Below, piece by piece: positions 11,100 to 13,107 of a stretch of DNA of 13,125 nt (its first letter is position 1; the number at the start of each line of letters is the position of its first letter). Origin of the DNA: an uncultured archaeon (lineage in GTDB: Archaea; Asgardarchaeota; Thorarchaeia; Thorarchaeales; Thorarchaeaceae); NCBI GenBank assembly GCA_964648855.1, contig CAZYLT010000033.1:1-13125 (forward strand), given 5' to 3'. Made by a program: the position numbers and the translations under genes. The notes under the pieces were generated by a model. It worked only from the letters and a program-made list of their open reading frames with translations. It was not told where the DNA came from and made no database searches.

Positions 11100-13107
11100 C
11101 TTTCAATCCTCACAATATGAGATTAGCTTCTGCAAGCAGAAAAAATGAGACCGCAAAGCCCACACTTCCATGCACTTTCAATCCTCACAATATGACATTA
11201 GCTTCTGCAAGGAAAACCTTAGACCTTCTGTATACGCGGACTACCAGTGCCTTTCAATCCTCACAATATGAGATTAGCTTCTGCAAGAAGATCTCTTGCC
11301 CACGCAGTAATTATAATATATTTATTCTTTCAATCCTCACAATATGAGATTAGCTTCTGCAAGTTCCATCACCATTCATCCTCCTCTGTGACTGTTCCCT
11401 CTTTCAATCCTCACAATATGAGATTAGCTTCTGCAAGTTTGAGGTTCGTGTTGGTGATGGAAATGACGGTTCTCACTTTCAATCCTCACAATATGAGATT
11501 AGCTTCTGCAAGATTTTAGTTGTTCGCGCGGAGGAATAACTTGACTCATTATCTTTCAATCCTCACAATATGAGATTAGCTTCTGCAAGTTCAAGGTCTG
11601 TGATCTCAAGACTGCACTTGTGGCACCCTTTCAATCCTCACAATATGAGATTAGCTTCTGCAAGGGATATGTGAACGGGGAGAAGGACTTCAGAGTAACA
11701 TTCTTTCAATCCTCACAATATGAGATTAGCTTCTGCAAGTCCATCACTGGATGGCGTAAATGCCGAGTCAATCGCCTTTCAATCCTCACAATATGAGATT
11801 AGCTTCTGCAAGCACTGGAGATTTGAAGCAGGCTCAGGCACAACGGCATACTTTCAATCCTCACAATATGAGATTAGCTTCTGCAAGTAATCGGGTGGGC
11901 CCAGCTTTGGACTCAACCCTCAGATCTTTCAATCCTCACAATATGAGATTAGCTTCTGCAAGTGTGTCCGCGCAAGGGCCGTTCGCGTCCGCTTGGCCGA
12001 ACACTTTCAATCCTCACAATATGAGATTAGCTTCTGCAAGGAGACCAACGGACTAACCGCATTTCCTAACATCTTCCATGACCTTTCAATCCTCACAATA
12101 TGAGATTAGCTTCTGCAAGGAGTTCACCGCCTACCTACCCGTGCGACAAGAGGTACAGGCTTTCAATCCTCACAATATGAGATTAGCTTCTGCAAGTAGC
12201 GATAAGTCGTTTCCGTCACTTGAGATTGAACCCTTTCAATCCTCACAATATGAGATTAGCTTCTGCAAGCCAATGTACCAGCAATATCAGAACACGAAGA
12301 AGAACAACTCTTTCAATCCTCACAATATGAGATTAGCTTCTGCAAGCAACACTCAATCGTGTCGAACTCCTGCTTGCCTATGACCACTTTCAATCCTCAC
12401 AATATGAGATTAGCTTCTGCAAGTTGGACTGCAGGGACAATCGTGTGCGTGTGGCGTGGTACTTTCAATCCTCACAATATGAGATTAGCTTCTGCAAGTA
12501 CTGCAGCTGGATAGTTCGAAGGCGGTGATGGCAGACTCTTTCAATCCTCACAATATGAGATTAGCTTCTGCAAGTTGGATTCGAGTAAGGCACTCATGGT
12601 TGATATCAAGCTCTTTCAATCCTCACAATATGAGATTAGCTTCTGCAAGTTATACGTTGTGAAGGCAGGTGCGAGATAATCACTACTTCTTTCAATCCTC
12701 ACAATATGAGATTAGCTTCTGCAAGATACCCATGATACTTGGTAGTGGACATGCATGGACACTGCCTTTCAATCCTCACAATATGAGATTAGCTTCTGCA
12801 AGTTCATAGCCCATTTCTCTCTTCATTAGACCTTCAATAACTTCTTTCAATCCTCACAATATGAGATTAGCTTCTGCAAGGCGAATGTTGTGGTGTTCAG
12901 AGTCGCGCCCCATCTGTCCTCTTTCAATCCTCACAATATGAGATTAGCTTCTGCAAGTTCTTTTCAGCTAGCTTTAAGTACAGATTGAACATATCTTTCA
13001 ATCCTCACAATATGAGATTAGCTTCTGCAAGGTCTGAATCTATCCACGGCATGATTAAACACATCCTTTCCTTTCAATCCTCACAATATGAGATTAGCTT
13101 CTGCAAG
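11100..13107 (-). CRISPR. CRISPR array: 27 full 37-nt repeats and 26 unique spacers of 36-42 nt; may continue past the window
   Basis: Repeat on + is CTTTCAATCCTCACAATATGAGATTAGCTTCTGCAAG; on - it is CTTGCAGAAGCTAATCTCATATTGTGAGGATTGAAAG. Minus-strand orientation is supported by the canonical 3' ATTGAAAG handle, a CUCAU/GUGAG hairpin that uses a U-G pair only on that strand, and decay at the left end (G>C at 11196 and the truncated repeat at 11054-11068). Confidence 0.99.

Follow-up and report, generated by a model that had tools for sequence, protein, structure and literature searches.

Why would two neighboring CRISPR spacers encode almost the same peptide in DNA that is heavily recoded? 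The question is raised by the window analyzed here, a stretch of 13,125 nucleotides from a Thorarchaeote genome, in which spacer 19 (39 nt, 12499-12537) and spacer 20 (38 nt, 12575-12612) are separated by one exact 37-nt repeat (12538-12574), all three read on the minus strand. The translations given in the preliminary description were reproduced: 8 of 10 amino acids were identical in the overlap against 17/30 nucleotides over the ten codons (17/31 when the last base is counted in), and both serine codons were switched between the AGY and TCN sets. In the shuffle test that had been proposed, none of 12,000 shuffled spacer pairs reached 8 identities or a BLOSUM62 score of 39, the maxima being 7 identities and a score of 35; taken over the 325 pairs of the array, this test by itself limits the array-level probability to no better than roughly 0.03 to 0.08. 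Among the 5,050 pairs from the 101 spacers of the genome's three arrays, the pair was the best apart from one duplicated spacer, with a score of 39 versus 36 for the next. The peptide match is real, and the matter was settled by the protospacer evidence given below. Spacers 7 and 18 were considered as another pair and rejected as chance, with a score of 31 and a stop codon inside.

The order in which the two spacers were acquired could be read from the array (11100-13107, minus strand), which belongs to a type I-D system and has 27 repeats and 26 unique spacers. The contig C32 opens with the last repeat of this array and the final 18 nt of the window (13108-13125, minus strand, identical to C32:38-55), which makes the array complete and puts the leader, whose start is in these 18 nt, to the right of it. 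The leader runs on into C32 for about 120 bp, with a TATA-like box near C32:126-133. The newest spacers are at the right-hand end; thus, spacer 19 is the older of the pair, and of the acquisitions that survive in the array, spacer 20 is the next. The minus-strand transcription that had been proposed for the array was borne out by the repeat end, by the leader and the cas genes on the right-hand contig C32, and by the PAMs, all of which lie on the side that this direction predicts. The 37-nt repeat was absent from 86 class relatives of the host, so there were no sister arrays to compare.

In a tblastn search, the spacer peptide matched the single pcna gene of the host genome, which sits between tfs and the primase gene. 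The motif aligned with D41-D42-S43-R44 of yeast PCNA, a stretch that forms the center loop and the strand lining the PIP-box pocket, and the targeted stretch was the most conserved window among seven aligned PCNAs. Neither spacer was copied from the host gene: host pcna matched spacer 19 at 26/39 nt and spacer 20 at 23/38 nt, with the flanks GAA and GGT, and for neither spacer was there the near-exact match with a PAM on its own chromosome that would mark self-targeting. The host gene is spared and has no PAM at these sites. In all 118 Thorarchaeia-type PCNAs that bear the motif, the residues are A-M-[VI] at the place for which the spacers encode V/L-M-A/V, and the spacer-type motif was found in 0 of 86 genomes of class relatives. 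A degenerate pattern of the peptide gave no matches in IMG/VR or in 185,579 GTDB species genomes; its 10 matches in JGI metagenomes were all chance or unrelated genes, and the three closest matches to a loose phylum-wide pattern were inspected and none was a PCNA. As a separate observation, the chromosomal pcna is tandemly duplicated in the Thorarchaeia genus g12 (G037:C132:12557-14222 and about 14 other genomes). Three Thorarchaeia genomes have very divergent second PCNA-like genes (L074:9484-15975 in G075 C27, L073:2183-2995, and G012 C343:4942-5409), one of which adjoins a 1,874-aa ORF.

It was the comparison of translated spacers with the host proteome that revealed the target family; nucleotide search of viral databases gave nothing. 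The peptide had been put forward as a handle for an undescribed archaeal virus, and it did lead to an undescribed archaeal element, by way of P0124, a 246-aa PCNA with 43% amino acid identity to that of the host (HMMER search of 1.84 billion representatives), and of the Logan contig L020 that encodes it (6,317 bp, 51% GC, from a mat metagenome). P0124 agrees with the peptide of spacer 20 at 12/12 residues and with that of spacer 19 at 10/12. Spacer 20 matched L020:786-823 at 38/38 nt, in frame and with the 5' PAM TCG, inside an intact pcna ORF (L020:672-1412), and its crRNA is antisense to codons 39 to 51 of this gene. P0124 scored 48 bits against PF00705 PCNA_N (cut-off, 20.3) and 22.2 against PCNA_C (cut-off, 23), and it matched the Archaeoglobus fulgidus (A. 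fulgidus) clamp 1rwz with an E value of 2e-21 over residues 9 to 242; by domain and clamp match, the target gene of spacer 20 is assigned as a PCNA sliding clamp. L020 is targeted by the C11 array of the host as well (39/40 at L020:3402-3441, PAM TCT, sense orientation), so that two arrays of one Thorarchaeote point to the same undescribed element family. A contig with the length and coordinates of L020 was found in run X3 (22.9x), alongside fragments of the host's array and of its leader.

L020 is distinct from the chromosomal locus of the host, since the host pcna lies between tfs and primase and that of L020 among small unknown ORFs; GC3 was 0.62 in the L020 gene versus 0.41 in host pcna. 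The contig consists of co-directional small ORFs without known identity, a HerA-like ATPase, a radical-SAM-like ORF, and one pcna. The ATPase and the radical-SAM-like ORF were closest to clusters in which Uroviricota (tailed viruses) is the most common taxon, matches that are leads and not alignments. No capsid, portal, terminase, integrase, or structural module was found on this 6.3-kb fragment, and a PHROG "terminase" match was discarded as it fell in the HerA-type ATPase region. L020 is likely a fragment of a virus, less likely of another mobile element such as a plasmid. No close relatives were found in IMG/VR or INPHARED; searches of viral contigs for related loci, started from the host PCNA, from P0124, from the ATPase, or from an alignment of P0124 and P0122, gave no match, and protein searches with P0124 returned P0124 alone. 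A second contig, L067, is nested in L020 and adds no extension. The ATPase has one Thorarchaeia homologue (G011, 29%), and no pcna lies beside the G011 gene. The spacer 20 protospacer and its PAM (L020:786-826) were intact in three runs with abundant host leader region, a coexistence that could reflect strain mixture or an anti-CRISPR.

P0124 and a relative from another dataset, P0122, which is likewise encoded among small unknown ORFs (L021), formed a clade with support of 94/94 that grouped with Thorarchaeia PCNAs against those of other archaea. The element clamps were nested inside Thorarchaeia in the first tree and were sister to Thorarchaeia in the second, which omits the long branches P0219 and P0223, five outgroups, and three near-duplicates. 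The best chromosomal matches of P0124 were in the host's own genus, and capture of the clamp from that genus was neither established nor rejected (p-AU 0.25). Elements of the L020 lineage, represented by P0124 and its relative P0122, carry a clamp of Thorarchaeia ancestry. Other divergent PCNAs that keep the LDSSKA core are P0223 (L023:152-1012), P0219 (L022:857-1636), and P0121 (L068:2345-3169), which are possibly more element-borne clamps; the run accession of P0223 is a neighbor of that of L020.

Spacer 19 matched L020 at 24/39 nt and a separate 384-bp contig of the same mat, from run X4 (4.9x), at 39/39 (positions 254-292 of that contig, minus strand). The latter contig matches exactly 12499-12537 and neither flanking repeat and is therefore a true protospacer. 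Its gene is very probably a pcna, presumably that of a relative of the L020 element, to judge from the 12 codons, from the two preceding bases, which fit the invariant Leu36, and from third positions rich in G and C as in the pcna of L020; the crRNA of spacer 19 would be antisense to codons 36 to 49, approximately, of this putative non-host gene. A protein search for the short fragment of the target gene gave no match. We give little credence to an origin of spacer 19 elsewhere, that is, in the chromosomal pcna of another Thorarchaeote of the mat or in an unrelated gene with a similar peptide. Loose patterns do match unrelated genes of metagenomes and genomes, such as segments of P-type or Mrp-type ATPases. 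However, the 10/12 residues shared with P0124 include two upstream of the start of spacer 20, none of 118 chromosomal-type PCNAs has the residues of spacer 19 at positions 45 and 47 of the motif, the full pattern is absent from the 185,579 species genomes, and 9 of the 12 codons end in G or C, as in L020 pcna and unlike host pcna. The claim that both spacers sampled the same motif in homologous genes was thus confirmed for spacer 20 by its in-frame pcna match, and it probably holds for spacer 19, which has 10/12 residues in common with P0124.

Among the records listed, depth bins were explained by the target of spacer 20 alone in runs X1 to X3 (6 to 23x) and by that of spacer 19 alone in X4; all four runs are from one study, probably the campaign that yielded the MAG itself. 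To a small degree, these bins favor separate elements for the two targets, as opposed to paralogues. Paralogous pcna copies on one element, the second of the two sources that had been suggested, are very unlikely: tandem pcna duplicates do occur on the chromosomes of one Thorarchaeia genus and L020 is incomplete, but a single pcna is present on its 6.3 kb and the two targets are listed in different runs, the bins again being a weak argument. Two divergent relatives, the first of these sources, are the most likely reading, with the element itself in hand for spacer 20 and a relative of it presumed for spacer 19.

C32 carries cas1, cas4, a putative divergent cas10d, csc2, csc1, cas3', cas6, a Csa1-type cas4, and a gene for a Csa3-like regulator. 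Csc2 (Cas7d), Csc1 (Cas5d), and the I-D Cas3' were above the NCBIfam cut-offs (TIGR03157, TIGR03159, and TIGR03158, respectively). The Cas10d candidate, an 886-aa ORF with a weak Cas3'' HD match, gave an E value of 1.3e-15 and 56.6 bits against TIGR03174 (cut-off, 60) and would be a divergent cas10d in its right place in the operon. The Csa1-type Cas4 (TIGR01896, above cut-off) and the Csa3-like regulator are encoded at L002 (G000 C32):2723-3667 and 1773-2456. Judged by gene content, the locus adjacent to the array is of subtype I-D with I-A-like accessories. Published I-D loci (PMC10212523) have cas10d, csc2, csc1, cas3', cas6, cas4, and cas1 beside the array, the same set as here, where cas10d is a candidate; unlike them, this locus has an inferred TCN acquisition PAM together with two additions of the type I-A kind, a further Cas4 of the Csa1 type and a regulator resembling Csa3. 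A separate 206-aa ORF (C32 8324-8944) lies between csc2 and cas10d, and a second cas1 with cas2 is found on L069 (G000 C42):7749-9073, at a distance from any effector genes, and the operon on C32 breaks off behind cas1.

On the crRNA strand, the flanks at positions -3 to -1 were TCG for spacer 20, TCT for spacer 21 (12650-12688, minus strand; protospacer contig in runs X1 to X3), TCA for spacer 23 (12803-12843, minus strand; protospacer on contigs of 5.5 to 7 kb), and TCT, TCA, and TCA for three C11-array spacers; the exception was GCT for spacer 15 (12197-12232, minus strand), whose protospacer has one mismatch. As 6 of the 7 targets with a readable flank have TCN, for which p is about 2e-6 given the dinucleotide frequency of L020, we infer 5'-TCN as the acquisition PAM, a first estimate for the Asgard type I-D locus here. 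The flanks do not fit the GTN/GTH PAM that is typical of I-D, though not defining; GTN was reported for Synechocystis and GTH for Microcystis (PMC10212523), TCN is an acquisition motif of Sulfolobales I-A (PMC4390879), and the I-D system of Sulfolobus acidocaldarius (S. acidocaldarius) accepts TCA (PMC10577407). Exact searches for spacers 21 and 23 in viral contigs gave no match. Two C11-array spacers (39/39 and 31/40, both with PAM TCA) target L070 (G000 C51):1168-1207 and 2623-2661, which was binned with the host.

The preliminary description had further read both crRNAs as antisense to the target mRNA and compatible with type III targeting. The orientation holds for spacer 20 on the pcna of L020 and, through the presumed pcna target, for spacer 19; type III targeting was not supported. 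A type III system is not required for an antisense orientation, since on the coding strand of L020 the PAM occurs less often than its complement (425 versus 608; 42 versus 73 within pcna) and the C11-array spacer is in sense orientation. Targeting or regulation of pcna transcripts at the RNA level, those of the host included, is extremely unlikely. Both crRNAs are antisense and I-D Cascade binds single-stranded RNA in vitro (PMC10212523), but the adjacent locus is I-D, the PAM is of the DNA type, the same element is also targeted by the sense-strand spacer, the host gene has 13 to 15 mismatches, and a search of the genome, which is 94.6% complete, turned up no Csm1, Cmr2 (Cas10), or RAMP genes, with control matches in 5 to 6 of 14 genomes.

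Overall, we favor as reasonably probable an account in which two related, long-diverged clamp-carrying elements were recorded successively by the I-D array. A Thorarchaeote host with a DNA-targeting I-D system would have logged two long-diverged relatives in turn, most likely tailed viruses, each with its own sliding-clamp gene of Thorarchaeia ancestry, and the viral clamp may recruit host replication proteins onto viral DNA. As synonymous change is saturated, the genes diverged long before the spacers, which speaks against escape by recoding; the synonymous differences would reflect the old divergence of elements A and B and not escape from spacer 19. The crRNA of spacer 19 would have been unable to cut element B, so that a new spacer was required. 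The overlapping sites would then most likely be independent, PAM-limited acquisitions, to which a local bias to the replication region may have contributed.

That the overlap was noticed at all is due to the conservation of the motif, for elsewhere two recoded targets would not be recognizable as homologous. That the pair falls on a conserved motif is in part a matter of ascertainment. The acquisition or selection hotspot that had been proposed was not established; selection for the conserved motif is a weak argument because the DNA is recoded freely at this site. Under a naive model, 25 neighboring pairs would include one that is homologous, on the same strand, and overlapping with a probability of only 0.4 to 6% for a genome of 10 to 80 kb, even if every neighbor pair came from related elements. 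This is low for one array, but such a pair would be expected at some point across a scan as large as the present one; pure coincidence requires this breadth of scan or a bias. The low chance speaks for a hotspot in which most prespacers of the element family would come from the region around pcna, close to an origin, a genome end, or a strong early promoter, as do the strongly over-represented protospacers in Sulfolobus type I-A adaptation (PMC4390879). However, of the 101 spacers of the three arrays, no more than 2 match a pcna, with the other L020 match 2.6 kb away, and we consider such a hotspot rather unlikely.

Cross-priming, in which crRNA 19 bound the pcna of element B imperfectly and steered the uptake of spacer 20 to the same place, is quite improbable. 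The order fits (19 older, 20 next), the strand is the same, and the PAM ends are 9 nt apart; in addition, 4 of the 15 mismatches are at the every-sixth positions flipped out by I-D Cascade, which binds single strands with relaxed flanks (PMC10212523). Nevertheless, the 15/39 mismatches include crRNA positions 1, 2, 5, and 6 (seed) and 20 to 25, and the flank is TGA and not TCN, so spacer 19 lacks on L020 pcna the seed and PAM pairing of primed adaptation; the same mismatches and wrong flank would make a second spacer useful. Priming is unreported for type I-D (PMC10212523), and crRNA 19 fits host pcna slightly better (26/39), which would carry a risk of self-priming. A reading without coincidence, in which the crRNA 19 complex recognizes a homologue of about 62% identity or adaptation favors the clamp or replication locus, is improbable; if true, immunity to one virus would guide the uptake of new spacers to that same essential gene in its remote relatives. 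No new immune or acquisition mechanism is established by the spacer pair.

PCNA genes in spacer-linked Asgard elements have already been published: Skoll (bioRxiv 10.1101/2021.07.29.454249) and Opia and Nidhogg (PMC11529989) encode PCNA and are targeted by CRISPR, and PCNA is also found in the Asgard 10H_0 and 7H_42-like MGEs (bioRxiv 10.1101/2021.07.29.453957). All of these were likewise found in Asgard archaea through spacers and have a PCNA related to that of the host lineage; the Skoll PCNA has 36.5% similarity to Lokiarchaeota, and P0124 has 43% identity to that of its host. Skoll, Nidhogg, and Opia are linked to Loki-, Hel-, and Atabeyarchaeia, whereas host and clamp ancestry here are Thorarchaeia, a separation drawn from descriptions, and, unlike in that group, the spacers here match pcna itself. 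The verdandiviruses VerdaV2 and VerdaV3 and Chiranvirus share the host class of the L020 element and are spacer-linked too; the former were reported without replication proteins (bioRxiv 10.1101/2021.07.29.453957), and the main text on the latter does not mention PCNA (PMC13700489). The open-licence literature searched contained no element that is linked to Thorarchaeia and carries a clamp of the Thorarchaeia type, and L020 adds an undescribed clamp-carrying element to those published.

Neighboring spacers against one virus family, as here, are known from Legionella arrays directed at gokushoviruses, where matches pile up in conserved regions and the authors blame database bias (bioRxiv 10.1101/2021.03.08.434514). 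Overlaps are cheap in microvirus genomes of a few kb, whereas the element here is larger, the synonymous sites of the overlap are saturated, and one exact target was recovered.

Some minor features of the arrays and the window were also recorded. Half of the spacers in the window (13/26, within 11137-13070) begin with T on the plus strand, 8 of them with TT, and spacers ending in G on that strand are rare (1/26 in this array and 4/65 in the C11 array), for which a PAM-distal preference together with a PAM-side bias is a possible explanation. One spacer of the C11 array is duplicated (numbers 36 and 40). A 308-aa ORF without a Pfam match (window 10086-11012) lies directly downstream of the array trailer on the strand of the crRNA transcript, and a weak DPM2 match, with 26.8 bits against a cut-off of 27.3, was found at window positions 3601-3954.
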